Positions 4,284 through 17,173 are shown, counted from the stretch's first letter. The stretch is DNA of 64,000 bases from Candidatus Shapirobacteria bacterium (GCA_041659325.1 JBAZYN010000001.1:366819-430818), one strand, 5' to 3'. Notes: a model not told the origin generated them from the letters alone. Numbers and translations: made by a program.

Positions 4284-4928
4284 ATGCAAAAACAAAATCG
4301 AATAATAACTCTCAGCATTTTATCTCTATCAATGTTACTTCTTTCTGCCTGTGGAGCCAAAAAACCCGAATCCAATACCCAGCCAACCCCTACCGTCACT
4401 AAGTTGATTGAATTAACCCCGGAAGAACAACCCTACATTAAACTTATTCCCAGAGCCGATGGCCACGAGCTAAAGCTGGTCATTCAAAAACTAAACACCA
4501 ACATCAGTGAAATCGACTATGAATTAATCTATACCGCCACCGACAACGGCCAGGAGATTGAAAAAGGAGTAAGCGGCAACATGAAGGTAGAGGGTAAATC
4601 AGTTGAAAGGGATTTGCTGCTTGGAACTGCCAGTTGCACCAATGGCTGTAAATACAAATATGACACCGGTATCAGTCAGGGGACATTAATGCTAACTTTG
4701 GCCACTTCTTCCGGCCAGGTTTCGACTTTTGAGACCCCCTTTACCCTTAAATCAGCCGCCGCCCTAAAAACAGAAAAGGAAATTAAGCTCCCCACCGCAA
4801 ATTTTTCGGTTAAGGTCACACCAAAGACCGGAGAATACTATACCGTCATCAAAAACGCCCTTGTCTATTCTGTATTTTCCAGTAACACCAGCAATCCCCT
4901 GGTTAGCGAAACTCCGCTTGACAATTAA
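4284..4928 (+). CDS. Putative lipoprotein of unknown function
   Basis: Internal Met start of ORF 4020..4928, immediately after the glyQS stop. The signal peptide ends in the lipobox LLSAC. Confidence 0.5.
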   Translation: MQKQNRIITLSILSLSMLLLSACGAKKPESNTQPTPTVTKLIELTPEEQPYIKLIPRADGHELKLVIQKLNTNISEIDYELIYTATDNGQEIEKGVSGNMKVEGKSVERDLLLGTASCTNGCKYKYDTGISQGTLMLTLATSSGQVSTFETPFTLKSAAALKTEKEIKLPTANFSVKVTPKTGEYYTVIKNALVYSVFSSNTSNPLVSETPLDN

Positions 4929-4929
4929 A

Positions 4930-5799
4930 ATGCTCTATCACACCCCGGTTCTGGTTGAAGAGACAATCCAATTTTTCGACCCAAAACCTGGTCAGATATA
5001 TATCGACGCTACACTCGGAAATGGCGGACATACTATAGAAATTCTAAAAACCGGTGCTAAAGTTTTTGGCATTGACCAGGATCCACTTAACCTGAAAATT
5101 GCCACTACAAGAATCAGCGAGGCGAACCTTGATAATAAATTTATTCCTATCCACGGAAATTTTAACGATTTAGAAAATATATTTTCAAAAACTATTCAGA
5201 CTCCACCCGATGGTATCCTGTTCGATTTGGGATTAAGTCAAAACCAACAATTATCCCGAAACAGGGGATTCTCTTTTAATGACGATCTTTCTCTGGATAT
5301 GCGACTCGATCCCGAAAACCAGGAAATTACCGCCGAATATATTGTCAATACCTATTCTTTTGACGAACTTTACGAAATCTTTACAAAATACGCCCAGGAA
5401 ATATATAGTAAACCACTAATCATTAGAATTATAAAAGCCCGTCAAAAAAAACCGGTCAAAAACAGTTCTCAACTGGCAAATATTATCAGGGATTACTATC
5501 GGGAAAAACACAACCAGTCACGCATTGACCCAAGTACAAAAATATTTATGGCCCTAAGAATTGCCGTTAACAACGAATTTAGTAATCTCAAGTCAGCCCT
5601 AACTCAAGCCGTCAATATTTCAAAACCCCAAACCACCATTTGCGTTATTACCTTCCATTCCGGGGAAGATAGAATTATAAAACAGTTTATTAAAAAAAAT
5701 TTCCCAAACGCCCCCAAACCCATAATGCCTACTCAAAAAGAAATAACGAAAAACCCATTATCCCGCTCTGCCATCCTCAGATCGTTTAGAATTAGCTAA
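4930..5799 (+). CDS. rsmH: 16S rRNA (cytosine1402-N4)-methyltransferase RsmH (MraW)
   Basis: Start chosen at MLYHTPVLVEE, 1 nt after the lipoprotein stop. Has the DATLGNGGH motif and sits first in the dcw cluster. Confidence 0.9.
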   Translation: MLYHTPVLVEETIQFFDPKPGQIYIDATLGNGGHTIEILKTGAKVFGIDQDPLNLKIATTRISEANLDNKFIPIHGNFNDLENIFSKTIQTPPDGILFDLGLSQNQQLSRNRGFSFNDDLSLDMRLDPENQEITAEYIVNTYSFDELYEIFTKYAQEIYSKPLIIRIIKARQKKPVKNSSQLANIIRDYYREKHNQSRIDPSTKIFMALRIAVNNEFSNLKSALTQAVNISKPQTTICVITFHSGEDRIIKQFIKKNFPNAPKPIMPTQKEITKNPLSRSAILRSFRIS

Positions 5800-6063: not shown

Positions 6064-7671
6064 ATGTATCAAAAGAGAGCTAAGACAGTTTTTCTGACAA
6101 TATTGTTAGCATTTTCCGCCATTATATTGAGATTATTTTATTGGCAAATCATAAAGGGTGATGAGTTCAGAAAAAAAGCAATACTTCAAACTTATAAACT
6201 TGAAAAAATCCTTCCGGCAAAAGGCACCATAAATTCAGCAGACGGCTACCCCATGGCTCTAAGTCAGGACATCTACCAAGTATCGATTTATAAACCAAAT
6301 CTTAAGACAAATATCGACAACGTTATCTACCAGATAAATCAATCTATTCCCAACCTTATAGACTCCACCCATCCAACGGTAAAATCATTCATTACAAACC
6401 AAAATATAAAATGGGTAGACCTGCCGACCAAAATCTCCAAAGACAAAGTTGAAAAAATTAATCTACCAGGAATTAGTTTCAAGAAATATCAATCAAGGTT
6501 TTACCCGGAAAATCACCTGGCAAAAAATATTCTTTCCGGCCTGGAAAATTATTATATTAAACAACTTGCCGGAAAAACCGGCTTTTCCTTAACCGCCAAA
6601 GATGCCGTCGGCAACATCCTTCTGACCAAAAAAAGCTGGAATAAACTGGCAGTAGATGGACAAAATTTGCATCTTTACCTAAACCGCGGTATTCAGTTAC
6701 AAACCGAGCAGCTGTTGTCAAAAGGGATAAGACAATTCTCGGCCGACTCAGGATCAATTATTATTATCGATCCGCAAACGGGGGGAATACTTGCCATGTC
6801 TTCCCAAGGGGCCACAGACTCGGCAATACTAAATACACCACAAAACACTACTATTTCTAATCTGTTCGAGCCCGGTTCTATCTTCAAGCCACTGGTTGTT
6901 TCCATGGCTCTGGACATAAGTGCAATTCAGCCCGACTATATCTGCACTAAATGCAACCAGACTATAACCTTCGGTGAATATACCATTGGAAACTGGGACA
7001 ATCAAATCCATCCCGACTCAACCCTAAACGATATTATCAAAAACTCCGACAATATCGGCATGAGCCATATTATTGCCCGGCTCAGACTCGATAATTTTTT
7101 GAAATACTACTCGGAGCTTGGTTTAACTCAAAAAACCGGAATAGACCTCCAGGGAGAAACAAAACCTGTCGCAAAAAAATACTGGAGTGATGTTGATCTG
7201 GCCACCGCCTCCTTTGGGCAGGGGATAGCCGTGACTCAAATTCAGATGGTTCAGGCTTTCAACACCATTGCCAACAACGGCATTTTGGTACCTCCGAAAC
7301 TCGTTAAATCAATTACTGAAAACAACAAAACCATCAAAACAGGTCAACAAAAAATCAAAAGAGTTTTTCAGGAATCAACCATAAAAGAAGTAAAATCCAT
7401 CCTTAAATTTGCAGTAGAAAACGGCGCTATTTCCGGATTGAAACCAAAACAAATGGAAGTATGTGCCAAAAGTGGTACTGCTCAAGTGGCTGTTAAAGGC
7501 GGGTATTCAGAAAGCTCAGGTATCGCCTCATACATCGGTTTCTCCCCCTGCCAAAATCCAAAGTTTACCATGATTGTCACCATCAACAACCCAAAAACAT
7601 CTTCCTGGGGATCGAGTACTGCTGCTCCGATATGGTTCGATTTGGCCAGTCGTATCTACAATTTGCTATAA
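6064..7671 (+). CDS. ftsI: Class B penicillin-binding protein (FtsI, transpeptidase)
   Basis: N-terminal TM plus SXXK (GSIFKP), SXN (NSDNIG) and KTG (AKSGTA) motifs. Confidence 0.85.
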   Translation: MYQKRAKTVFLTILLAFSAIILRLFYWQIIKGDEFRKKAILQTYKLEKILPAKGTINSADGYPMALSQDIYQVSIYKPNLKTNIDNVIYQINQSIPNLIDSTHPTVKSFITNQNIKWVDLPTKISKDKVEKINLPGISFKKYQSRFYPENHLAKNILSGLENYYIKQLAGKTGFSLTAKDAVGNILLTKKSWNKLAVDGQNLHLYLNRGIQLQTEQLLSKGIRQFSADSGSIIIIDPQTGGILAMSSQGATDSAILNTPQNTTISNLFEPGSIFKPLVVSMALDISAIQPDYICTKCNQTITFGEYTIGNWDNQIHPDSTLNDIIKNSDNIGMSHIIARLRLDNFLKYYSELGLTQKTGIDLQGETKPVAKKYWSDVDLATASFGQGIAVTQIQMVQAFNTIANNGILVPPKLVKSITENNKTIKTGQQKIKRVFQESTIKEVKSILKFAVENGAISGLKPKQMEVCAKSGTAQVAVKGGYSESSGIASYIGFSPCQNPKFTMIVTINNPKTSSWGSSTAAPIWFDLASRIYNLL

Positions 7672-8990
7672 TTAACCCAATCTCAATGTTTTTTCTCCAA
7701 AAAATAAAAAACCTGTTTTGGCACCTACCGAAAAGTATATTTTTTAACCTATATTACGGTCTCCCTTCGAGAAAACTAATATTAATCGGTGTTACCGGTA
7801 CGGACGGGAAAACTACTACTTGTACTTTGATTCATGAAATTCTGAAAAACAACGGCCTCCAATCCGGCCTGATAAGCACCATCCATGCCAAAATTGGCGA
7901 CAAAATTATCGAAACCGGACTTCATACCACCAGTCCGGACCCAAAATTAATCCAACAACTATTTCGCCGGATGGTCAAGGCCGGTCTTACCCACTGTGTA
8001 TGCGAAGTCACCTCCCATGCCCTGGATCAAAACAGGTTTTGGGGATGTCAGTTTGAAATATCCGCCATTACCAATACTTCCCATGAACACCTCGATTACC
8101 ACAAAACAATGGAAAATTATCTTCGCTCAAAAACGAAACTTTTCCGAATTTCTAATCACGCCATTCTAAATAAAGACGATCCTTCATACAACATTATTTC
8201 CCCCACCGTCACTGTCCCTCATAAAACTTATAGCATTAATAAAAAATCTGATTTTCAGGCGAAAGATATCACCATCAAAAAAACTTACATGGAGTTTATG
8301 GTCAATGGAGTCAAAATTAAAACCGACAGTAACTACCACTACCAAATATACAATATCCTTGCCTCATTGGCCGTTACTAAACACCTCGGAATAAACATCC
8401 ATACCGCCAAATCAACCATCGTAAAATTTCCCGAAACCAAAGGCCGCCGAGAAGAGGTTCCCAATGAATTTGGTATCAAAACTATCATCGATTTTGCTCA
8501 TACTCCCTATGCCCTGGAAAGTACTTTAAGCGCTCTTAAAAATATAACTCCAAACAATCTGATTGTAATTTTTGGGGCAACCGGTGGACGAGACAAAAGT
8601 AAAAGGCCACTTATGGGCAAAACGGTTTCCCATGTCGCCAATATTGCCCTTCTTACTTCCGACGACACCAGAAACGAAAAAGTTGAAGATATCAACGAAC
8701 AAATTATAAGTGGAATTGACAAGAATTTATCCGAATTATGGGACTACAAAGAAGTTCAGTCTCAAAATTTATATTCCAAAGTGACCCAAGCCGCAAGAAA
8801 AAAATTTACTTTTATGAATATCCCCAATCGCCAGGACGCTTTTAACATCGCCGCCAAACTGGCTCACCCGGGTGACACAATAGTCGCCTGCGGAAAGGGT
8901 CACGAAACAACTATTTTACACGGCTCAACCGAATATCCATGGTCAGAATCAGAAGCCTTCAGAAGTGCTCTTAGATTTCGAAATATCTAA
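7632..8990 (+). CDS. murE: UDP-MurNAc-tripeptide synthetase MurE-like Mur ligase
   Basis: P-loop GVTGTDGKTTT and C-terminal TSDDTRNE, which corresponds to the MurE 'TSDNPR.E' region. The N-terminal domain is unusually short. Sits in the dcw position after ftsI. Confidence 0.75.
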   Translation: MVRFGQSYLQFAIINPISMFFLQKIKNLFWHLPKSIFFNLYYGLPSRKLILIGVTGTDGKTTTCTLIHEILKNNGLQSGLISTIHAKIGDKIIETGLHTTSPDPKLIQQLFRRMVKAGLTHCVCEVTSHALDQNRFWGCQFEISAITNTSHEHLDYHKTMENYLRSKTKLFRISNHAILNKDDPSYNIISPTVTVPHKTYSINKKSDFQAKDITIKKTYMEFMVNGVKIKTDSNYHYQIYNILASLAVTKHLGINIHTAKSTIVKFPETKGRREEVPNEFGIKTIIDFAHTPYALESTLSALKNITPNNLIVIFGATGGRDKSKRPLMGKTVSHVANIALLTSDDTRNEKVEDINEQIISGIDKNLSELWDYKEVQSQNLYSKVTQAARKKFTFMNIPNRQDAFNIAAKLAHPGDTIVACGKGHETTILHGSTEYPWSESEAFRSALRFRNI

Positions 8991-8991
8991 T

Positions 8992-9582
8992 ATGACTCAA
9001 TACAACCTTCAAATTAATTCCCCCGTTGACGAAAACTACGAACATGGGTTTTTACCCCAAAGAAACAACAAAAACCTCTTTTATCAGGAAACTAGCTCAC
9101 GCTCAAATCTTCACCACTTCTCCCTCAGTTCAGAAAACAGAAGAATTATTTCTAAAACCACACAATATAACTACGACTTTCTACCGCTAGCTGATTTTAC
9201 CTATAGTCTGTCCATAAAAAAAACAATCAATACCTGGATTCACAAACTTGGCTGGATTTTTCCGATGGGTTCGGTAAAAACAATATTTAATAATCATATC
9301 TTTAATTACCTTTATATCTGGAAAAATGAGCAACAACAAGTTATTGCTTATTCGATATGTTATTTTTCTGAAAAAATTTCTCATATTGCTTACGTTTTTT
9401 ACGACCCCACTTATTCGCACACCAATTTCCCGATCAGATTAACTCTGCAAACAGTTATCGACAGCCAAAAGAGGGGACTCGATTATTGTTATCTGGGCAG
9501 GTTCTCAAAAGATTCTGGATACTATAAAAGAACCATGCCCGGCTTCGAATATTTTAAAGATAATAAATGGATTACATTATAA
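8992..9582 (+). CDS. Arginyl/leucyl-tRNA--protein transferase C-terminal (ATE_C/Bpt-like) domain protein
   Basis: C-terminal YLGRFSKDSGYYKRTMPGFEYF..W matches the Bpt/ATE_C signature (YLGYW..S.KM.YK..F.P.E...W). The ATG lies 1 nt after the murE TAA. The Cys-rich ATE_N region is absent. Confidence 0.5.
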   Translation: MTQYNLQINSPVDENYEHGFLPQRNNKNLFYQETSSRSNLHHFSLSSENRRIISKTTQYNYDFLPLADFTYSLSIKKTINTWIHKLGWIFPMGSVKTIFNNHIFNYLYIWKNEQQQVIAYSICYFSEKISHIAYVFYDPTYSHTNFPIRLTLQTVIDSQKRGLDYCYLGRFSKDSGYYKRTMPGFEYFKDNKWITL

Positions 9583-9621: not shown

Positions 9622-10995
9622 ATGCATATTCACGTTATAGGGATTGCCGGTACCATGACTTGTCCCCTGGCCATCGCCTTAAAAAAAGCCGGTCACACTA
9701 TCACCGGATCAGACCAGGAAAAAATATACCCACCGATAAGTACAAATTTAAAAAATGCCGACATCCCCATAAACACCCTCAAGAACTTTAAAATTGTTGA
9801 TTTGGCAATTATCGGCTCTTCCTATTTATCGTTTTCTAACACAAAAAGCGAGTTTGATATCATAAAAAAACTTAATATCCCCTACATTTCCGCCACCAAA
9901 TATGTCGGCCAAAATATTGTCAAAAAAAATTCGATATTGGTCGTCGGCACCGGCGGCAAAACCACAATCACAAGTCTAATAACCTGGATCTTTCTGAAGG
10001 CAAAACTAAATCCCAACTATATGTTTGGAGGCCAAAGCCTAAACAAAATTCCCTCCCTCGATTTCACCACCGGGGACTGGTCGATTGTTGAAGGCGATGA
10101 ATCGATAAACGGACTAGATACTAAAGCAAAATTCCTTTACTACCCGGCAAAATATGTCATTCTAACCGGTGCTAATTGGGAACACAAAGAAAGCTACAAA
10201 AACGAATCTGACAATCTGGAGTCTTTTCGGACACTTATCAAAAAAATCCCTCCGGACGGGTTATTGATTACCAATTCGCTAGGACACAAAACCGAAACGC
10301 TCTCCCTAGCCTCACGAGCCAAGGTAATTTTTTATAATGGGCAAAAGTCAGATTACAAAATAATCAAAAAGGAAATATCTCAAATTTCAAAATTAACTTT
10401 TGTTACTCCTAAAGGCAATTTATCGATAAAAACCAGTCTTCTCGGTACATTTAATTTTGAAAACATCCTTGCCGCCGTCACTTTGTGCATGGAAATTGGA
10501 ATTAATCCCAAAATTATCCAAAAGGCGGTATCTTCCTTTAGGGGAATCAGCCGAAGATTGCAGAAAATTATTTCAAAAAACAACCTTCACTTTTACGATG
10601 ACTTTGCTCAATCTCCCGAAAGAATCAAGTCGGCACTCGACGCTGTCAAGCTTCATTTTCCAAATCAAAGAATTTTTGTTTATCTTGAACCTCACGCATC
10701 ATTTCTTCTCACCACATCCGGGCTTATCGGCCTTGGAAACGCCCTGTCGGATTGTACAAAAATAATTCTGTCAAAAATTCCATTCAAAACCAATATCCCA
10801 ATCTCTACTCGGGCTACGGCAAAACACTATTCCGACGAGATTGGTGATAACCTTATATATATTCCTCAAAACAAAGAGCTTTATAAATATTTCCATCAAA
10901 CGTTAAAACCAAACGATATTCTGGTTCACTTTAGCTCTGGAGGAGCAGAAGGTCTCAAAACCTTCAAAAAAATTACTAGTTATCGCACACAATAA
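9622..10995 (+). CDS. murC: UDP-N-acetylmuramate--L-alanine ligase (MurC/Mpl-type Mur ligase)
   Basis: N-terminal IGIAGTMTCPLAIALKKAGHTITGSD, P-loop VGTGGKTTIT, EGDESINGLD and GISRRLQ all match MurC motifs. Confidence 0.7.
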   Translation: MHIHVIGIAGTMTCPLAIALKKAGHTITGSDQEKIYPPISTNLKNADIPINTLKNFKIVDLAIIGSSYLSFSNTKSEFDIIKKLNIPYISATKYVGQNIVKKNSILVVGTGGKTTITSLITWIFLKAKLNPNYMFGGQSLNKIPSLDFTTGDWSIVEGDESINGLDTKAKFLYYPAKYVILTGANWEHKESYKNESDNLESFRTLIKKIPPDGLLITNSLGHKTETLSLASRAKVIFYNGQKSDYKIIKKEISQISKLTFVTPKGNLSIKTSLLGTFNFENILAAVTLCMEIGINPKIIQKAVSSFRGISRRLQKIISKNNLHFYDDFAQSPERIKSALDAVKLHFPNQRIFVYLEPHASFLLTTSGLIGLGNALSDCTKIILSKIPFKTNIPISTRATAKHYSDEIGDNLIYIPQNKELYKYFHQTLKPNDILVHFSSGGAEGLKTFKKITSYRTQ

Positions 10996-12324
10996 ATGTC
11001 AAGATACGTCATCAGTGGGGGAAAGCCACTATCGGGCGAAGTGTCCATTCGCGGCGCTAAAAATGCCAGCTATAAACAACTTATTGCCACATTACTCACC
11101 GCTAAGACTTGTCAATTAACCAATGTTCCTCAGATATCCGACATAAGAATAACCGAAAGCATTGCCAAAAGTCTTGGTTCCAAAGTTACCTATACCGGAG
11201 AGCACAGTCTGGAGGTAAAAACCCCAAAAATTACCAACTCAGCCGTCCCTATGGGAGTCGGTGAAAAATCAAGGTCGTCGTTTATGTTTGCCGCCCCTCT
11301 TTTGGTCAGAACCGGATCCGCCACCGTTCCGATTCCGGGAGGAGACAGGCTCGGTGCTCGACCACTAGACCGTCTTTTTGATTGCTACAGAACGATGAAT
11401 ATCCAAACCGAGGAATTCCCAAACAAAATTTTTTTTCGAACCGACAAGATAAAACCAACCCACTATACCTTTGCTAAACCATCCCACACCGTTACCGAAG
11501 TAATAATTATGACTGCCCTGGCCGCAACCGGAGAAACGATTATCGACAACGCCGCCAGAGAACCGGAAATCGATGATTTGATAAGCATGCTCAACTCTAT
11601 GGGTGCCACCATTCAGCGAGACCCAAAGAATTCCGGTCGGATTATCATCCAAGGTGGTAAGTCACTAAATGGAACCAACCATCAAGTCATCTCCGACAGA
11701 AACGAATCTGTCACTTTTGCCTGTGCCGCCCTTGCCACGAAAGGATCGGTAAATATTTTACGAATTGACCCAAAAATTATTTCTAAATTTTTAACTACCA
11801 TTGAAGCCATGGGAGCAAAAGTATATAGGGGAAAAGACGAAGTTGCCGTCACCTGGTATCAACCACTAAAAGCCATCGACATTGAAACAGAGCCGGAACC
11901 GGGATTTATGACCGATTGGCAGGCACTTTTTACTATTGTACTTACTCAGGCAGTCGGGTGTAGCAGTATTATCGAAAGAGTCCACCCGTCTCGATTCCAG
12001 CATATTAAAAATCTTGAAATCATGAATGCAAAAGTAAAATATTTTAATCCTGAAATCAACCACCCCGAAAACTATTACCACTTTAATCCGGAAAACGATC
12101 ACTCGGACTACTTCCATGGTGTCAAAATTTACGGACCAACCAAGCTAATCGCCAACAACTTTTCAATCAATGATTTAAGAGCCGGCGCATCGATCACTCT
12201 GGCGGCCATTACTGCTGAAGGTAAATCAGTGGTCGACGGGGTTGAATATATTGAAAGAGGCTACGAAAAACTAGCCGAACGTCTTTGTTCCCTCGGAGCT
12301 CAAATAGAGTATATTAAAACATAA
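10996..12324 (+). CDS. murA: UDP-N-acetylglucosamine 1-carboxyvinyltransferase
   Basis: ISGGKPLSGEVSIRGAKNAS N-terminus, EPT-fold length of 442 aa and dcw context. Confidence 0.9.
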   Translation: MSRYVISGGKPLSGEVSIRGAKNASYKQLIATLLTAKTCQLTNVPQISDIRITESIAKSLGSKVTYTGEHSLEVKTPKITNSAVPMGVGEKSRSSFMFAAPLLVRTGSATVPIPGGDRLGARPLDRLFDCYRTMNIQTEEFPNKIFFRTDKIKPTHYTFAKPSHTVTEVIIMTALAATGETIIDNAAREPEIDDLISMLNSMGATIQRDPKNSGRIIIQGGKSLNGTNHQVISDRNESVTFACAALATKGSVNILRIDPKIISKFLTTIEAMGAKVYRGKDEVAVTWYQPLKAIDIETEPEPGFMTDWQALFTIVLTQAVGCSSIIERVHPSRFQHIKNLEIMNAKVKYFNPEINHPENYYHFNPENDHSDYFHGVKIYGPTKLIANNFSINDLRAGASITLAAITAEGKSVVDGVEYIERGYEKLAERLCSLGAQIEYIKT

Positions 12325-13358
12325 TGACACATTTGTATTTGGGTTTGATGCTATTTTCGTTTCTTTCAACCAGTATTTTGGTGATTCCCTTTATTAACCT
12401 TTTATACAAGTTAAAATTTCAACGTCAAAAGCAAAAAACCCTTGATTTTCAAAATAAAAGAACTCCCATTTTTGACAAGTTTCATTCCCAAAAATCCGGA
12501 ACTCCGGTGGGAGGTGGACTTTTGATTATTCTCTCCGTCTGCATCCTTTTTATTTTTCTTTTCCCAATATTAAAGGTAGCCAAAATTTTTATCTCTAGCA
12601 ATTACCAAATTAATCGTGAACTGGAAATAATTTTCTTTACCTTTATCAGTTTTGGGCTTTTAGGTCTCTACGATGATGTGATGAAATTCTTTGGTTTCAA
12701 AAAAACAGGCTTTTTCGGGCTAAGAATGAAACACAAACTACTTTTGCAAATGTTTCTCTCTACCGTTATTTCGTTCATGATGTATTTTGGCCTAAACATC
12801 AACTTCATCTATATTCCTTTTTTCGGCGCCGTCAACTTGGGTCTCTTTTTTATTCCGATATCATCAGCCCTAATTATCGGTTTTGCTAATTTCTTTAATA
12901 TCACCGATGGTCTTGACGGCTTATCCTGTGGTCTTTTAATGATTGCTCTTTTTGCTTTTTGGGTACTAGCCGGAAACTCTCTGGACACTCCGATTTCTCT
13001 TTTTTTGGCTCTTTGGCTAGGAAGCTTGATTGCATTTTTGTATTTCAATATTTTTCCGGCCAGGCTATGGCTAGGCGACGTTGGAGCCTTATCGTTTGGG
13101 GCCACCTTCGCCGTGATAGCTCTGCTATTAGGCCGCGTGGTTCCTCTCCTAATCGTTGGCGCACCATTTATTGTAGAAGGGGGAAGTAGTGCTATCCAAA
13201 TAATTTCTAAAGTTTATTTCCACCGAAAACTTTTTCCGGCCGCCCCACTCCACCTCACTTTGCAAACCATGGGCTGGGAAGAACCAAAAATAGTCACCAG
13301 GGCTTGGCTAGCCGGTATTATATTAGCTATCTTTGGATTATGGTTGGGGCTAAACTAA
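12324..13358 (+). CDS. mraY: Phospho-N-acetylmuramoyl-pentapeptide transferase
   Basis: LGLYDDVMKFFG and NITDGLDGL motifs with ten TM helices. Confidence 0.9.
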   Translation: MTHLYLGLMLFSFLSTSILVIPFINLLYKLKFQRQKQKTLDFQNKRTPIFDKFHSQKSGTPVGGGLLIILSVCILFIFLFPILKVAKIFISSNYQINRELEIIFFTFISFGLLGLYDDVMKFFGFKKTGFFGLRMKHKLLLQMFLSTVISFMMYFGLNINFIYIPFFGAVNLGLFFIPISSALIIGFANFFNITDGLDGLSCGLLMIALFAFWVLAGNSLDTPISLFLALWLGSLIAFLYFNIFPARLWLGDVGALSFGATFAVIALLLGRVVPLLIVGAPFIVEGGSSAIQIISKVYFHRKLFPAAPLHLTLQTMGWEEPKIVTRAWLAGIILAIFGLWLGLN

Positions 13359-13933
13359 TTTCCTTGCTAGAAAAGGAAGTGAACAATTACCTAAGAATAC
13401 CTTACTTATATGGCGGCAAAAACACCTGGGAAGAAATCAAAAAGAATTTTTCAGAATACAAACAGCTCAAGAAAAACAAACAAGGAATAGACTGCTCTGG
13501 ACTGGCCTATCATCTCCTCGACTATTATTCAAAACTTTTGGGACTAGGCAGCATTTACGGTCATCTGATAGGCACCGAGGGTAAAAGAGGGGCTAGTCGA
13601 GTATCGGCCAATTTATTTACATCTCCCCCAAACTCATTTCCTTTATACACTTATTCCGACATCCGAACCGGAGATTTGATTAGGCTAGATTCCGGCCGAC
13701 ATATCTTGTTCGTCCTGGAATACAAAAAATCGCAAATTCGCTATGTTCACAGCAGCCACAAAACCAAAACTAGGGGGGTCCATTTGGGGGAAATTCAAAT
13801 TGTTGACCCCTCAAAAACCTTGGATCATCAAAAATGGAATGAAACCTACTCCAATGGAAAAAATTACTCCTCAATTTTCAACCAAAAAAATGGTGACGGA
13901 ATCTTTCGCCTATTTCTCTTCAAACAACTCTGA
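13340..13933 (+). CDS. NlpC/P60 family cysteine peptidase (peptidoglycan endopeptidase-like)
   Basis: YLYGGKN...GIDCSGLAY catalytic Cys motif with a downstream His. Internal Met start of ORF 13304..13933, overlapping the mraY end. Confidence 0.6.
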   Translation: MVGAKLISLLEKEVNNYLRIPYLYGGKNTWEEIKKNFSEYKQLKKNKQGIDCSGLAYHLLDYYSKLLGLGSIYGHLIGTEGKRGASRVSANLFTSPPNSFPLYTYSDIRTGDLIRLDSGRHILFVLEYKKSQIRYVHSSHKTKTRGVHLGEIQIVDPSKTLDHQKWNETYSNGKNYSSIFNQKNGDGIFRLFLFKQL

Positions 13934-14068
13934 TATCTTTAAAGGCTTCAAACCAACTATTTCAACCTCTGTCCCACACTCCTGACATTCGAGAATTTCA
14001 CCAACCTGCAAGACACCCTTTGTTTCTATTTCCGACTTACAATCTGGACAAAATATTTTATCTTCCAT
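13910..14068 (-). CDS. LysW-like zinc-ribbon amino-group carrier protein homolog (52 aa)
   Basis: Hand translation gives MEDKIFCPDCKSEIETKGVLQVGEILECQECGTEVEIVGLKPLKISELFEEK. The CPxC..EIE....GEI..C..CG.EVEIVGL.PL pattern closely matches LysW/ArgW. The C-terminus is EEK rather than the usual EDWGE. Too short for the ORF track. Confidence 0.5.
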   Translation of the reverse strand: MEDKIFCPDCKSEIETKGVLQVGEILECQECGTEVEIVGLKPLKISELFEEK

Positions 14069-14104
14069 AACAAAATTATATAATCAATAAACCTCAGTTA
14101 TTAT

Positions 14105-14926
14105 ATGACATCAACACCCCTAATAAAACTAGAAAACTTCTACCTGAAAAGAGAAGATAAAAATCAAACCGGTTCGATAAAGGACAGGGCAATATCACTG
14201 CAAATAGAAAATCTCGTTGGCAAAGGTATCTCGGCGGCGGTTATCTCCAGTACCGGCAACGCCGCCATTTCCGCTCTCTATTATTGCTCCAAATCAAACA
14301 TAAAACTGACCATCTTTCTTTCCCCAAAGATCAACCTGTCAAAACTATCACTCATCACTGAAAAAACAAAAAACTTTATCATTTCCGACAGACCAATTAG
14401 TGGTGCCTTTAAATATGCCAAAAAAACCAATAGCTTTTTGCTCCGACAATCCACCGATCCCATAGCTCAAATCGGCTATCAGTCGGTCGGCTTGGAGTTA
14501 TCAAAAGATATACCCGATATTACCAGCATATTTATGCCGGTTGGCAGCGGGACAACCTTGTTGGGCATTTCAAAGGGGCTCCCAAAAACTGTCAAAATTT
14601 TTGCCATTCAGCCCGCCTCTCACTGCCCCATCAGCCAAACATTTGACCCTCAATATATCAAAGAATCACACACCATCACCGATGCCCTATCCGTAAAACT
14701 TCTGCCCCTAAAGTCAGATATTTTAAAAACCATTACCGAGTCCGGTGGAGGAGGCATGGTTGTCCAAAACACAACGGTTGTTGAAACTCAAAAATTTCTC
14801 CTCACAAATAACATTTTTACTTCACCGGAAGGCGCCTTGGCCTTGGCCGGGTTCCTAAAGGCTGAAAAACTGGGAATCAAAGTTGGTGCCTACCCCGTAA
14901 TTATTTTAACGGGTGAACAAAGATGA
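14105..14926 (+). CDS. Fold-type II PLP-dependent enzyme, threonine-synthase/cysteine-synthase-like (short form)
   Basis: TPLIKLENFYLKREDKNQTGSIKDRA (PLP lysine), SSTGNAAISA, GSGTT and ESGGGG...SPEGALALAG match the ThrC/CysK family. 273 aa. Confidence 0.65.
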   Translation: MTSTPLIKLENFYLKREDKNQTGSIKDRAISLQIENLVGKGISAAVISSTGNAAISALYYCSKSNIKLTIFLSPKINLSKLSLITEKTKNFIISDRPISGAFKYAKKTNSFLLRQSTDPIAQIGYQSVGLELSKDIPDITSIFMPVGSGTTLLGISKGLPKTVKIFAIQPASHCPISQTFDPQYIKESHTITDALSVKLLPLKSDILKTITESGGGGMVVQNTTVVETQKFLLTNNIFTSPEGALALAGFLKAEKLGIKVGAYPVIILTGEQR

Positions 14927-16038
14927 CATCAAATTTGCTATCCGCTCTAAACCAATCTCCATACTACTATTTCTTCCTGGTTGTCGACGACTCGCTTAGA
15001 ATCTCCCTCCCGCAGCTAAAATATTTCACCCCGGTAAACTCCAATCAGTTCGACAATGAACTTAACTCAGGTAAGCTTCTTTCAAATCCAAAAGTAAGGG
15101 ACTTTATAGAAACTACCTCAAAAAAACACCATAAATTACCGGCAATTATCCCATTTAAACCATCCGCCAAAATCGATTTTATCTGTAAAAATAGAAATTG
15201 GCTTAAAGTCAGTAATGACAGTAGCTTAAACCGTGTAATTGAGGACAAATTAAAATTTCCGCTAATCTGTAAAAATCACGATATTCCGATTTTGCCGTTT
15301 ATTATCGACAAGCTAAATAGATTATCTTTTGAAAAGGCCAAAAACCTACTCGGCCCCGAACTTATAATCCAAACTCACTTTGGTTGGGCCGGTAAATCCA
15401 CTTTTCAGGCAGATTGCTTTGACCATCTCAAAAAAACAATTCCACCCGACACTGTTGTAAAATTTTCACCCCACCTCAAAGAGAGTTACACCCTTCTAAA
15501 TAACTGCTGCCAAACTAATAAGGGGCTAATCCAAAGTCCACCGGCAGTTCAATTTACTGGGATTAGGTCGCTGACTACCAATCCTTTCTCCACCGTCGGA
15601 CGTCAATGGCCATCCTTTGCCCCCCCCGATATTATCGACCAGACTTTCAAAATTACCCAAAAATTTTCCGACTATCTTGAAAAGAAACACTATAAAGGTT
15701 TCTTTGGTCTCGACTTTATTGTTGATCAAAACAAAGTATACCTTCTCGAATGCAATCCCAGACTAACCGCCTCATTTGCCTTTTATACCCAAATTGAGCT
15801 GAAAGCCAATTTAAATCCGCTTTTCCTTTTTCACCTTGCCGAATTTAGTCTTAAAAACTATCTCTTTGACATCACCACCGAACAGACACGTTTCAAAAAC
15901 CCAAAAATCATCGGCACTCAACTTACCAGAAGAAGCGAGTCAGGCAAAATAGACGGAAAATACGAAACCAATAATTTTATCGTTACCTCTCCCAAAAATT
16001 CAACTATAAAAAATGAGATCATCTCCAAAATCAACTAA
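14923..16038 (+). CDS. ATP-grasp family ligase (CPSase/L-amino-acid-ligase-like C-terminal motif); not a canonical Ddl
   Basis: LIIQTHFGWAGKSTF (ATP-binding) and GFFGLDFIVDQNKVYLLECNPRLTAS (ATP-grasp C-terminal). No Ddl-type N-terminal GEDG motif. Confidence 0.6.
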   Translation: MTSNLLSALNQSPYYYFFLVVDDSLRISLPQLKYFTPVNSNQFDNELNSGKLLSNPKVRDFIETTSKKHHKLPAIIPFKPSAKIDFICKNRNWLKVSNDSSLNRVIEDKLKFPLICKNHDIPILPFIIDKLNRLSFEKAKNLLGPELIIQTHFGWAGKSTFQADCFDHLKKTIPPDTVVKFSPHLKESYTLLNNCCQTNKGLIQSPPAVQFTGIRSLTTNPFSTVGRQWPSFAPPDIIDQTFKITQKFSDYLEKKHYKGFFGLDFIVDQNKVYLLECNPRLTASFAFYTQIELKANLNPLFLFHLAEFSLKNYLFDITTEQTRFKNPKIIGTQLTRRSESGKIDGKYETNNFIVTSPKNSTIKNEIISKIN

Positions 16039-17173
16039 GCAAACTCTCCGGCTCTCCCCGATTGTTATTTTAACCTTCATCCTTATTCTGATCGGGTTTC
16101 TATTTATTTCCATTTCGTCTTTAACCGAAGCCAGTAGTACTATCGGGGATAAATTTTTCTTTTCAAAAAAGCAATTAATCTGGATTGTAATCAGTTGGGT
16201 AGTATTCTTTGTCACCTCAAAAATACCCCTCGAAACAATAAAAAAGGCCTCTCCCATTCTTTACTTCTCATCATTATTTTTGTTATTTTTGGTGTTAATT
16301 CCCCAACTCGGAAACAAGACCCTGGGCGCCAGACGATGGCTCGACATCGGCTTTACCGAAATTCAACCTTCAGAGATTTTGAAGCTATTTTCAATAATCT
16401 ATTTTGCCAAACTATTTTCTCAAGCCGATAAAAGAACTATCAAAAACTTATTGCTCTACCTGGGAATTCCCTTTGTATTAATCATTGCCCAACCAAACCT
16501 TAGCACTGCCATTCTGATCTCTGCCATTGTTATCACTATTTACTACCTTTCCGGAGGAGAAATCATTCATCTTTTTACCCTCGGTTTTTTTGCTACCATA
16601 GTTAGTTTTTTACTGGTTATCTCTTCTCCATATCGAATGGCCAGACTTCAGGGACTGTCTACCGGTTCTTACCATAGCAACCAAATCATTATGGCGCTCG
16701 CTTCGGGAGGAATATTTGGAAAAGGGTTTGCTAATTCCGACCAGAAATATCGTTTTCTACCCAAAATATCAACGGATTCCATCGTCGCAGTAATCGGCGA
16801 AGAAACAGGAATTATCGGCATTATAACGGTCATTTTACTGTTTATTTTTCTGATCGTAAATATATTTAAAATTGCCAATAGTTCCAAAGATTCATTTGAG
16901 TCACTCCTGATCTCGGGAATCGGCTGTTGGATTGCATTCCAAGCGTTAATTAACATTTCGGCCATCGTCGCTCTCATCCCCCTAACCGGAGTCCCTCTTC
17001 CCTTCATTTCCTACGGAGGATCATCATTAATTTCCCTCATGTCTGCCATGGGGCTAGTCTACAATATCGAAAGGAATAGACCAAAACTGCTATACTACTC
17101 TGCCGATGACAATATACAAAAAGAGAGTAAAAACCATCTGCATAACCGGCACCCACCACACCCCCGCAGTTGA
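16013..17173 (+). CDS. ftsW: SEDS-family peptidoglycan glycosyltransferase FtsW
   Basis: RRWLDIGFTEIQPSE, PKISTDSIVAVIGEE and PLPFISYGGSS motifs. dcw position before murG. Confidence 0.8.
   Translation: MRSSPKSTKQTLRLSPIVILTFILILIGFLFISISSLTEASSTIGDKFFFSKKQLIWIVISWVVFFVTSKIPLETIKKASPILYFSSLFLLFLVLIPQLGNKTLGARRWLDIGFTEIQPSEILKLFSIIYFAKLFSQADKRTIKNLLLYLGIPFVLIIAQPNLSTAILISAIVITIYYLSGGEIIHLFTLGFFATIVSFLLVISSPYRMARLQGLSTGSYHSNQIIMALASGGIFGKGFANSDQKYRFLPKISTDSIVAVIGEETGIIGIITVILLFIFLIVNIFKIANSSKDSFESLLISGIGCWIAFQALINISAIVALIPLTGVPLPFISYGGSSLISLMSAMGLVYNIERNRPKLLYYSADDNIQKESKNHLHNRHPPHPRS

Follow-up and report, generated by a model that had tools for sequence, protein, structure and literature searches.

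What is a block of four unexpected genes doing between mraY and ftsW, in the slot that murD fills in a canonical dcw cluster? The question is raised by a 64-kb window from the ultra-small CPR bacterium Candidatus Shapirobacteria (the whole 64,000-nucleotide stretch of DNA analysed here), in which positions 13304-16038 hold four ORFs flanked by mraY (12324-13358, plus strand; PF00953) and ftsW (16013-17173, plus strand; PF01098, 5e-89). The first ORF, on the plus strand, opens with a TTG at 13304 and ends at 13933; it encodes a P60-like protein for which an ATG at 13340 is the start conserved in 68 orthologues, giving a gene of 13340-13933. Next come an acidic, LysW-like zinc-ribbon protein of 52 residues on the minus strand (13910-14068), a short fold-type II PLP enzyme of 273 residues, here called PALP (14105-14926, plus strand), and an ATP-grasp enzyme of 371 residues (14923-16038, plus strand). 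Between the LysW-like ORF and the PALP start lie exactly 36 bp (14069-14104), and the insert reported in the initial annotation is present with its flanking genes, its position at the murD slot and this gap. Its statement that murD and ddl are missing from the window is also borne out: MurE and MurC are the only Mur ligases there, and neither homologues of Ddl, MurB, MurF or MurD nor a MurI or Alr motif were found within the window. Two readings had been offered, namely that the insert makes an unusual dipeptide for the peptidoglycan stem in place of Ddl-type chemistry, or that an amino-group-carrier system is embedded in the division operon.

The gene order MraY-P60-LysW(-)-PALP-ATPgrasp-FtsW (type A) is found in 99 of the 169 CPR loci that carry the ATP-grasp gene, and most of the remaining loci have shortened versions of the same order. 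The arrangement, found again in 80 GTDB species and about 85 further loci (metagenome scan and contig look-ups), is far beyond chance. MraY lies directly 5' of the block in at least 99 loci, FtsW directly 3' of it in type A loci, and in all loci examined the LysW-like gene runs on the minus strand. Natural fusions join PALP to the ATP-grasp enzyme (P0400 and P0312) and the ATP-grasp enzyme to a P60 domain (P0380 and P0301); the P60-like gene is missing from the block in three type A loci (L091, L150 and L157). The four genes are, in short, a conserved module rather than a local oddity, inherited together as one block in about 170 loci from Microgenomates-type and other CPR bacteria. Concerns that they might be unlinked in relatives, or that the 52-residue ORF might be unconserved, can be set aside, since the genes remain together and the ORF is conserved. 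No transporter is conserved alongside the block, and no LysZ-, LysY-, LysJ- or LysK-type enzyme occurs within it, the enzymes conserved there being the P60-like protein, PALP and the ATP-grasp enzyme, with or without MurD. We found no earlier description of the module in the literature.

The strongest link between the module and a known pathway, overlooked in the initial annotation, is a MurD-type ligase that lies within the block in 23 loci, directly upstream of LysW(-). P60 precedes MurD in all 18 of these loci that extend far enough, giving the order P60-MurD-LysW(-)-PALP-ATPgrasp (type B). Scored against the TIGR01087 cut-off of 212 bits, the ligases of two loci reach 258 bits (L085, above the cut-off) and 186 bits (L090). 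In L085, MurD retains Asp182 and Lys348, residues of the D-Glu type, and would therefore need free D-Glu; the main type B MurD-like clade keeps the Lys, has Asn at the Asp182 position, and falls below the MurD cut-off. No MurD was found in about 140 type A loci, and in three loci (L081, L086 and L091) MurA, B, C, E, F, Ddl, MraY and MurG are clustered, yet there is no MurD. Either the block stands where murD canonically would, between mraY and ftsW, or a MurD-type ligase forms part of it, and it coexists with Ddl and MurF: a Ddl gene adjoins the module in 10 related loci (in L081, the sole one scored, at 325 bits against a cut-off of 262) and MurF does so in 24. Since sister lineages have genuine Ddl and MurF alongside the module, the reading in which it replaces Ddl-type chemistry is not supported. 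We conclude that the module is widely conserved, undescribed, and linked genetically to peptidoglycan precursor synthesis at the MurD step.

The LysW-like assignment of the 52-residue protein, with an atypical tail, is well founded. The protein matches PF21344 (Zn_ribbon_LysW) at 5e-11 and 42 bits, above the gathering score of 27, and the LysW structures 3wwl (8e-8) and 5k2m (3e-7) in the PDB; orthologues in other lineages reach up to 48 bits on PF21344. Equivalog cut-offs are not attained (37 bits against 53 for TIGR01206 and 25 against 75 for NF041070). The protein ends in ELFEEK, and the terminal Glu-Glu-Lys recurs in about 145 orthologues (73 from Shapirobacteria and 75 others), none of which was found to have an EDWGE-type tail. 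This tail is nearly invariant in 124 distinct genes, which use all eight synonymous codon combinations for the three residues. Its fold, size, acidity, tail invariance and linkage suggest that the protein may be a swinging-tail carrier in the manner of LysW.

As initially described, the ATP-grasp enzyme carries an ECNPR motif (LECNPR) and lacks the Ddl N-terminal signature; we rejected its identification as Ddl because neither Dala_Dala_lig_N nor Dala_Dala_lig_C matches it. Structurally, the enzyme belongs to the acyl-phosphate-forming group of biotin carboxylase, PurK, PurT and the L-amino-acid ligases, outside LysX/RimK and Ddl; membership of the LysX/ArgX (RimK) family was likewise rejected. 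Its only NCBIfam match is PRK06524 (95 bits against a cut-off of 684) and its sole PDB sequence match is PurK 3orq (E 0.027). Near structural neighbours include BesA (L-propargylglycine--L-glutamate ligase), PGM1-type peptide ligases, and PylC, which was crystallised with L-lysine; the carboxylases BC (biotin carboxylase) and PurK stand just as near in fold. The bond made by BesA is a gamma-glutamyl one, PGM1 uses ribosomal peptides as ligation partners, and PylC acylates the N-epsilon of Lys. BesA, the PGM1/8ynd peptide ligases, PylC, BL00235 and BacD share only 9-13% sequence identity with the module enzyme, however, and all of them lack a link to a zinc-ribbon protein, mur genes or a P60 domain. 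Assignment to a housekeeping family (PurK, PurT or biotin carboxylase), which the initial annotation had asked to be checked, was rejected given profile scores below the cut-offs and the mur/fts context; the likeness to PurK and BC is real in fold only.

PALP matches PF00291 at 2.5e-43 and its nearest solved relatives are threonine synthases (2zsj, 6e-13), in keeping with its earlier description as a short PLP enzyme of threonine-synthase fold. The PLP-Lys motif TGSxKDRA is kept, as are SSTGNAAIS and PVGSGTT. Relative to 2zsj, DPIAQIGYQ replaces NPYRIEGQ and STGNA replaces STGNT, at positions that we take to bind the substrate phosphate. The best NCBIfam models are all archaeal-type "threonine synthase" and all score far below cut-off (e.g., 48 bits against 167 for TIGR00260). 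With the phosphate-binding residues missing and the models so far from their cut-offs, threonine synthase was rejected as the identity of this enzyme.

The label NlpC/P60 peptidase is a tentative one for the first ORF: no Pfam or NCBIfam model matches the protein directly, but Cys52 (in GIDCSGL) and His121 are invariant in 33 orthologues, with His or Asp at position 137, and its profile gives a weak match to Spr/MepS (E 0.3) that aligns on the Cys and His motifs. Moreover, hhalign pairs it (probability 99.3%, E 8e-21) with the domain at the C-terminal end of P0380, an ATP-grasp fusion; that domain itself matches PF00877 weakly (E 0.003). In P0301, a member of the same ATP-grasp family is joined to a bona fide NLPC_P60 domain. 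The AF2 model (pLDDT 48) is too poor for a fold search. Reading the N-terminus by eye, we saw no hydrophobic stretch, signal peptide or membrane segment, from which it appears that the protein would act in the cytoplasm. NlpC/P60 enzymes classically cut gamma-glutamyl amide bonds.

We tentatively propose, with rather less than even confidence, that the four ORFs form one carrier-type amino-acid processing module that feeds or tailors the MurD (position-2) step, a role suggested by the conservation of the block, the presence of MurD within it, the fusions, the LysW fold, and tail invariance despite synonymous codon turnover, as well as by the peptide-ligase neighbours of the ATP-grasp fold, the apparently cytoplasmic P60-like protein, the D-Glu-type residues of the L085 MurD, and the MurL/MurD2 precedent discussed below. 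The ATP-grasp enzyme, as putative loading ligase, would spend ATP to join an amino-acid substrate to the tail of the zinc-ribbon carrier, either at a Glu in that tail or at the epsilon-amine or alpha-carboxylate of the terminal Lys. The PLP enzyme would convert the amino acid, possibly glutamate or a derivative of serine or phosphoserine, by racemisation or beta-replacement, and a putative cytoplasmic NlpC/P60-type cysteine amidase would release a product that feeds or tailors the MurD step, stem-peptide position 2 (D-Glu). Some observations run against this role, among them the P60-like protein's want of confirmation from Pfam or structure and its absence from three type A blocks, the equal nearness of the ATP-grasp fold to BC/PurK, and the Asn-bearing, sub-cut-off MurD-like clade. 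With an ATP-grasp enzyme of another type than LysX/ArgX and a tail other than EDWGE, the case for a carrier has to be made from the protein's features and linkage listed above. The idea of an amino-group-carrier system survives partly and in altered form, by analogy: the zinc-ribbon match stands, whereas the EDWGE tail and the LysZ/Y/J/K-type enzymes are missing. In addition, a fold-II PLP enzyme cannot use an amino acid with a blocked alpha-amine, so that canonical amino-group-carrier logic is not directly transferable.

Known systems provide partial parallels. LysW/ArgW systems (LysW with LysX/ArgX, LysZ/Y/J and LysK, including the Streptomyces AmCP secondary-metabolite pathways) likewise have a very acidic PF21344 protein of about 50-60 residues with a flexible acidic C-terminal tail, whose gene adjoins those of an ATP-grasp enzyme and a hydrolase able to unload the carrier; there too the carrier is always a polypeptide of its own, whereas fusions between the enzymes sometimes occur. 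They differ from the module in their ATP-grasp family, in the presence of LysZ/Y/J/K, and in an EDWGE tail whose terminal Glu carries the substrate on its gamma-carboxyl, in place of EEK. In the CysO-CysM-Mec+ and 3-thiaglutamate/pearlin pathways, an amino acid is built on the C-terminus of a small protein, a peptidase frees the product, and the carrier is regenerated; CysM, the builder in protein-thiocarboxylate-dependent cysteine synthesis, is a fold-II PLP enzyme. The module may resemble these pathways in its small-protein handle, fold-II PLP builder and dedicated peptidase, but has a zinc ribbon instead of a ThiS/MoaD or leader-peptide fold, a terminal Lys instead of Gly-Gly, ATP-grasp acyl-phosphate chemistry instead of E1-type adenylation or aminoacyl-tRNA activation, and a different pathway context. 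Xanthomonas MurL/MurD2 is an alternative, ATP-consuming D-Glu route for position 2 that is encoded next to murD and was recognised because the usual D-Glu-forming genes are missing (PMC8788868). The module would likewise be a non-canonical solution beside a murD-type gene; its partners, however, are an ATP-grasp enzyme, a PLP enzyme, a zinc ribbon and a P60-like protein, each of which can be recognised by fold or motif, whereas MurL reportedly has no known conserved domains (PMC8788868). MurD2 has Glu/Arg, specific for L-Glu, at the positions equivalent to E. coli Asp182/Lys348, unlike the L085 MurD.

The same genes could instead tailor the stem peptide directly, an alternative that we consider unlikely if by no means far-fetched. 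The PLP enzyme would make a D- or non-protein amino acid that the ATP-grasp enzyme ligates onto UDP-MurNAc-peptide or a side group of lipid II, for instance at the D-Glu alpha-carboxyl or the position-3 side chain (compare Asp racemase with Asl(fm), or MurT/GatD), with the P60-like protein trimming or recycling and the zinc ribbon serving as a subunit of accessory or regulatory function. This would suit an ATP-grasp fold of L-amino-acid-ligase type, its adjoining and sometimes fused fold-II PLP enzyme, the tight embedding among mur genes next to MurD, and the Fem/ATE-like transferases in the same clusters, which show that stem tailoring does occur in these lineages. A precedent is the Asl(fm)/racemase operon, reportedly described by Bellais et al. 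in 2006. The Asl(fm) D-aspartate ligase and aspartate racemase of Enterococcus and Lactococcus, which decorate the peptidoglycan precursor, also pair an ATP-grasp ligase with a D-amino-acid-making enzyme, but this racemase is PLP-independent and the system has no carrier-like protein or P60 domain and lies outside the murD slot. Direct tailoring gives no reason for a small protein that is universal, has its own gene and ends in an invariant EEK, nor for the fusion of a cytoplasmic cysteine amidase with the ligase. A further alternative, salvage of host muropeptides, also leaves the EEK tail unexplained. CPR bacteria are episymbionts that scavenge from hosts, and YkfC, a cytoplasmic NlpC/P60 enzyme, acts in murein-peptide recycling in Bacillus; in this reading, the P60-like protein would cleave imported stem peptides and the ATP-grasp and PLP enzymes would re-use or re-shape the pieces, with the zinc ribbon as adaptor. 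The sparse metabolism of these organisms, Shapirobacteria encoding few metabolic families (PMC6744442), and a MurC resembling Mpl agree with salvage, which is nevertheless very improbable given the lack of a conserved transporter and that recycling needs neither a PLP enzyme nor an ATP-grasp enzyme.

In type A lineages, including that of this window, murD might be truly absent and the module might both make and install the position-2 residue in place of MurD and MurI, perhaps with an ATE-like tRNA-dependent transferase and an Mpl-like MurC, e.g., by building a peptide off UDP-MurNAc and then ligating it. The block does fill the murD slot, MurD is missing from type A loci even where the other mur genes cluster, MurC scores nearly as well on the Mpl model, an ATE-like protein is fused to MurC in one locus (L089), and MurE lacks the UDP-binding N-domain. 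The module and MurD coexist in type B lineages, however, which argues that its ancestral role was not that of MurD, and murB, murF and ddl also lie outside the cluster in Shapirobacteria, so that murD may simply be elsewhere; we regard such replacement as quite unlikely. A fuller version for Microgenomates-type CPR bacteria, including this one, is decidedly unlikely: murD and the D-Glu genes would be absent, position 2 would be made and perhaps installed on the EEK tail of the LysW-like carrier by the ATP-grasp enzyme, PLP enzyme and NlpC/P60 amidase, and the precursor pathway, so rewired, would be completed by a tRNA-transferase-like protein together with the Mpl-like MurC. Finally, the fold would admit an ATP-grasp enzyme that acts as a carboxylase in the way of PurK and biotin carboxylase, making carboxyphosphate and then an N-carboxylated amine, with the terminal Lys of the small protein as a BCCP-like carboxyl carrier. 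This is extremely improbable, as sequence matches lie far under every family cut-off, the module has no linked partner of the carboxyltransferase or biotin ligase type, and neither the mur context nor the association with PLP and P60 proteins would be accounted for.

Within the carrier-type module that we favour, one specific scheme would tether L-Glu through its gamma-carboxyl to the tail Lys, epimerise it with the PLP enzyme, and release D-Glu stereoselectively for MurD, although we think this particular chemistry unlikely. Simple racemisation has no obvious need of a carrier, and the D-Glu idea and a second clue, which points to serine, imply different substrates. That clue comes from a single locus (L110), where SerA/SerB/SerC-type genes sit between PALP and the ATP-grasp gene, an insertion that hints at serine or phosphoserine as the substrate.

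RsmH (4861-5799), PBP/FtsI (6064-7671), MurE (7632-8990, plus strand), an ATE_C-like protein resembling arginyl/leucyl-tRNA-protein transferases (8965-9582, plus strand), MurC (9622-10995, plus strand), MurA (10996-12324) and MraY (12324-13358, plus strand) are encoded in this order in the window, which is from a Candidatus Shapirobacteria (CPR/Patescibacteria) genome. Four ORFs lie directly downstream of mraY where the initial annotation had placed them, and their translations and domain matches agree with its description. These are a P60-like ORF (13304-13933, plus strand; conserved start at ATG 13340), a 52-aa LysW-like zinc ribbon (13910-14068, minus strand) that matches PF21344 (5e-11) and solved LysW structures, a 273-aa PALP enzyme (14105-14926, plus strand) whose closest solved relatives are threonine synthases, and a 371-aa ATP-grasp protein (14923-16038, plus strand) with an LECNPR motif. 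FtsW (16013-17173, plus strand) lies directly downstream of the four ORFs and is followed by MurG, an FtsQ-like ORF, FtsA, FtsZ and a second SEDS protein. The 36-bp divergent gap reported between the small gene and that of the PALP enzyme is exact. Only two Mur ligases are encoded in the window, and a homologue search of all 64 kb found no Ddl, MurB, MurF or MurD, as had been claimed for murD and ddl; no MurI or Alr motif is present within the same 64 kb. All 2-kb bins of the window have a negative GC skew (-0.03 to -0.36), although almost every gene lies on the plus strand; AT skew is mostly positive.

When an ATP-grasp alignment was searched against one genome per GTDB species, 80 loci were obtained, most of which are labelled Shapirobacteria. 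The remaining labels (29 "uncultured Gammaproteobacteria", one "Methanoperedens", and a few Woesebacteria and Parcubacteria) are taken to be mislabelling because the gene order is the same in all. Every sufficiently long locus reads MurE, ATE-like, MurC, (MurA), MraY, P60, LysW(-), PALP, ATP-grasp, FtsW, MurG, FtsQ, FtsA, FtsZ. The ATP-grasp family reaches beyond these loci: an exhaustive HMMER search in 1.84 billion representative proteins gave 1194 matches at E<=1e-3, among them relatives 430-490 aa long. The GTDB scan, the contexts of the HMMER relatives and a metagenome scan together yield 169 loci, 99 of which have the order MraY-P60-LysW(-)-PALP-ATPgrasp-FtsW (type A); the remainder are mostly truncated copies. 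A MurD-type ligase directly precedes LysW(-) in 23 loci, 18 of them with the order P60-MurD-LysW(-)-PALP-ATPgrasp (type B), and six Woesebacteria-type loci have P60-LysW(-)-PALP-MurB(-)-ATPgrasp followed by Ddl or MurF. Other genes can be interleaved with the module, as in Woesebacteria-type clusters with a SAM-methyltransferase and an 81-aa ORF (L081:8142-8867 and 11342-11587) and MurB on the opposite strand. In another related locus (L101:5025-6728), a DMT/EamA-type membrane transporter, a 158-aa ORF and an 83-aa ORF, HicB-like by reading of its sequence only, lie between PALP and ATP-grasp. A literature search found no published description of the four-gene module.

The two CxxC pairs of the small protein and its tail, ...PLKYRELIEEK, are nearly invariant among 73 Shapirobacteria orthologues, in which the final residue is Lys without exception, position -3 is always Glu, and position -2 is Glu or, rarely, Gln or Thr. 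In a second set of 75 loci from outside the GTDB scan, several of them again Shapirobacteria-type, the protein ends in EEEK (52), VEEK (8), IEEK (7), FEEK (3), NEEK (1) or LEEK (1), apart from one EVEK, one EEKG and one sequence truncated at a contig end. Each of the eight synonymous ways of encoding E-E-K is used among 124 distinct gene sequences, so the tail is under selection at the protein level. Conservation and this synonymous codon turnover rule out a chance antisense ORF. A database search with the 52-aa protein, limited by its word index, gave 5 near-identical matches. The protein is strongly acidic (13 Asp+Glu and 6 Lys, counted from the translation). In every locus its gene is transcribed in the opposite direction to an operon that is otherwise entirely plus-strand. 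In the window it overlaps the 3' end of the P60-like gene convergently by 24 nt (13910-13933); promoter and terminator scans around it gave nothing above shuffled sequences.

The best match of the scanned ATP-grasp relatives is only NCBIfam PRK06524 ("biotin carboxylase"), far below its cut-off. Comparison figures are highest for BesA (23.7), PurK (23.4), PurT (23.4), PGM1 (23.1) and the L-amino-acid ligase BL00235 (22.6), and lower for PylC (21.0), Ddl (about 18), LysX/ArgX (16-17) and RimK (15.8); Foldseek agrees with this picture. By fold, the enzyme belongs to the acyl-phosphate-forming BC/L-amino-acid-ligase group, and it is not a LysX, a Ddl or a recognisable PurK. Two distant PRK06524-like paralogues were set aside as their contexts are unrelated, P0277 (locus L084) being next to glycosyltransferases and P0360 (locus L087) next to 7TM_transglut, ATPgrasp_ST, MATCAP, FGase and GNAT genes. 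The PALP enzyme retains the PLP lysine motif TGSxKDRA, SSTGNAAIS and PVGSGTT. Comparison with threonine synthase shows that it lacks the Arg and Thr with which ThrC binds the substrate phosphate, and with scores below every cut-off it is not a genuine threonine synthase. In the P60-like protein the Cys of GIDCSGL and His121 are invariant and position 137 is H/D, and its assignment to the NlpC/P60 family is probable. Its N-terminus, read by eye, has no hydrophobic stretch, which would place the protein in the cytoplasm.

Protein fusions join two pairs of the components. PALP is fused to ATP-grasp in P0400 (782 aa) and P0312, and ATP-grasp is joined to a genuine NLPC_P60 domain (PF00877, 70.6 bits) in P0301 (634 aa, Peregrinibacteria) and to a domain homologous to the P60-like protein of the window in P0380 (739 aa; hhalign 99.3% probability, E 8e-21). 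No fusion of the small zinc-ribbon protein was seen, and it is separate in every locus examined.

Two explanations had been offered for the block. The proposal that it replaces Ddl-type chemistry is ruled out because bona fide Ddl and MurF adjoin the module in Woesebacteria-type loci (325 and 288 bits, respectively, in L081); Ddl is module-adjacent in 10, and MurF in 24, of the 169 loci. The proposal of an amino-group-carrier system in the division operon fares better in part, in that the LysW zinc-ribbon domain is present, but a canonical LysW/AmCP system is rejected given that three of the four testable defining features fail. The canonical LysW tail is EDWGE, and the 52-aa protein scores below the cut-offs of the LysW equivalog models.

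Among the cytoplasmic Mur steps, only that of MurD is tied to the block: MurD lies inside the type B block and the type A block occupies the canonical murD site. Type A clusters that are otherwise nearly complete (L081, L086 and L091) lack MurD alone among the Mur ligases. The MurD of locus L085 scores 258 bits against the TIGR01087 cut-off of 212 and retains Asp182 and Lys348. The main type B MurD-like clade has Asn and Lys at these positions ("TNLYPNHL" at Asp182, e.g. L097:4453-5859), and its one scored member, in L090, reaches 186 bits against the same cut-off of 212; the amino-acid substrate of this ligase may be other than plain D-Glu. The closest precedent is the MurD2/MurL system, in which an alternative position-2 route is encoded beside murD and MurD2 has Glu and Arg at the positions of MurD Asp182 and Lys348 (PMC8788868). 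Similar logic is ruled out here, since the associated MurD lacks these L-Glu-type residues.

Because the block is tied to the MurD step, the most likely reading is that the four proteins form one module for stem-peptide position 2, in which the zinc ribbon would be a tail-presenting carrier, the ATP-grasp enzyme the loader, the PLP enzyme the transformer, and the P60-like amidase the unloader. The parts list and the linkage of its members are direct observations, from which we infer a covalent role, a step order and a product. BesA makes gamma-glutamyl amides, PylC acylates Lys N-epsilon, and NlpC/P60 enzymes classically cleave gamma-D-glutamyl bonds. In a chemically coherent version, which we nevertheless consider unlikely, L-Glu would be attached by its gamma-carboxyl to the terminal Lys at the epsilon-amine, the free alpha-centre would be epimerised by the PLP enzyme, and the NlpC/P60 enzyme would free D-Glu for use by MurD. 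A serine clue points away from this L-Glu/D-Glu version: in one of the 169 loci (L110:1933-4940), a fusion of SerB-like HAD and phosphoglycerate dehydrogenase (PRK11790, 604 bits) and a SerC-like aminotransferase separate PALP from ATP-grasp, hinting that the substrate is serine or phosphoserine.

Few bacterial pathways are as conserved as the cytoplasmic part of peptidoglycan synthesis, which is a major antibiotic target and from which documented deviations, such as MurD2/MurL and MurT/GatD, are rare. The module described here has four components, one of them protein-carrier-like. If the carrier mechanism is true, LysW-type carrier chemistry would extend beyond lysine/arginine synthesis and secondary metabolism to the cell wall, the tail (EEK), the ligase clade and the release enzyme all being new. 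It would also offer a concrete, testable handle on how CPR bacteria, whose metabolism is sparse, acquire or alter the residue at the D-amino-acid position of the wall. Standard annotation gives these genes as "threonine synthase/dehydratase", "ATP-grasp domain protein" and "hypothetical", labels that could lead the metabolic reconstruction of CPR genomes astray.

Other observations concern the mur cluster itself. The ATE_C-like ORF separates MurE from MurC in the window, and likewise in all type A loci that extend far enough upstream. In L089 (3331-5268), a 645-aa MurC carries an N-terminal extension of ~220 aa that matches ATE-like queries by tblastn, with no profile match listed for the extension, indicating an apparent ATE-like::MurC fusion. 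This fusion and the position of the ATE-like ORF beside MurC suggest that a tRNA-dependent step may be coupled to MurC. The MurE of the window lacks the N-terminal domain, which binds UDP in canonical Mur ligases: profile matches begin at ~92-98 of 486 residues, the P-loop is at about residue 55, and PF01225 gives no match in this protein. Its orthologues from other lineages, L081:3153-4373 and L086:142-1332, are only 396-406 aa. The MurC-type ligases all score below the MurC cut-off, with murC against mpl (tripeptide ligase) values of 219 and 165 in the window (9622-10995), 235 and 221 in L081 (5142-6467), and 292 and 254 in L086 (2143-3564), so that the Mpl model nearly equals the MurC model in the two related loci.
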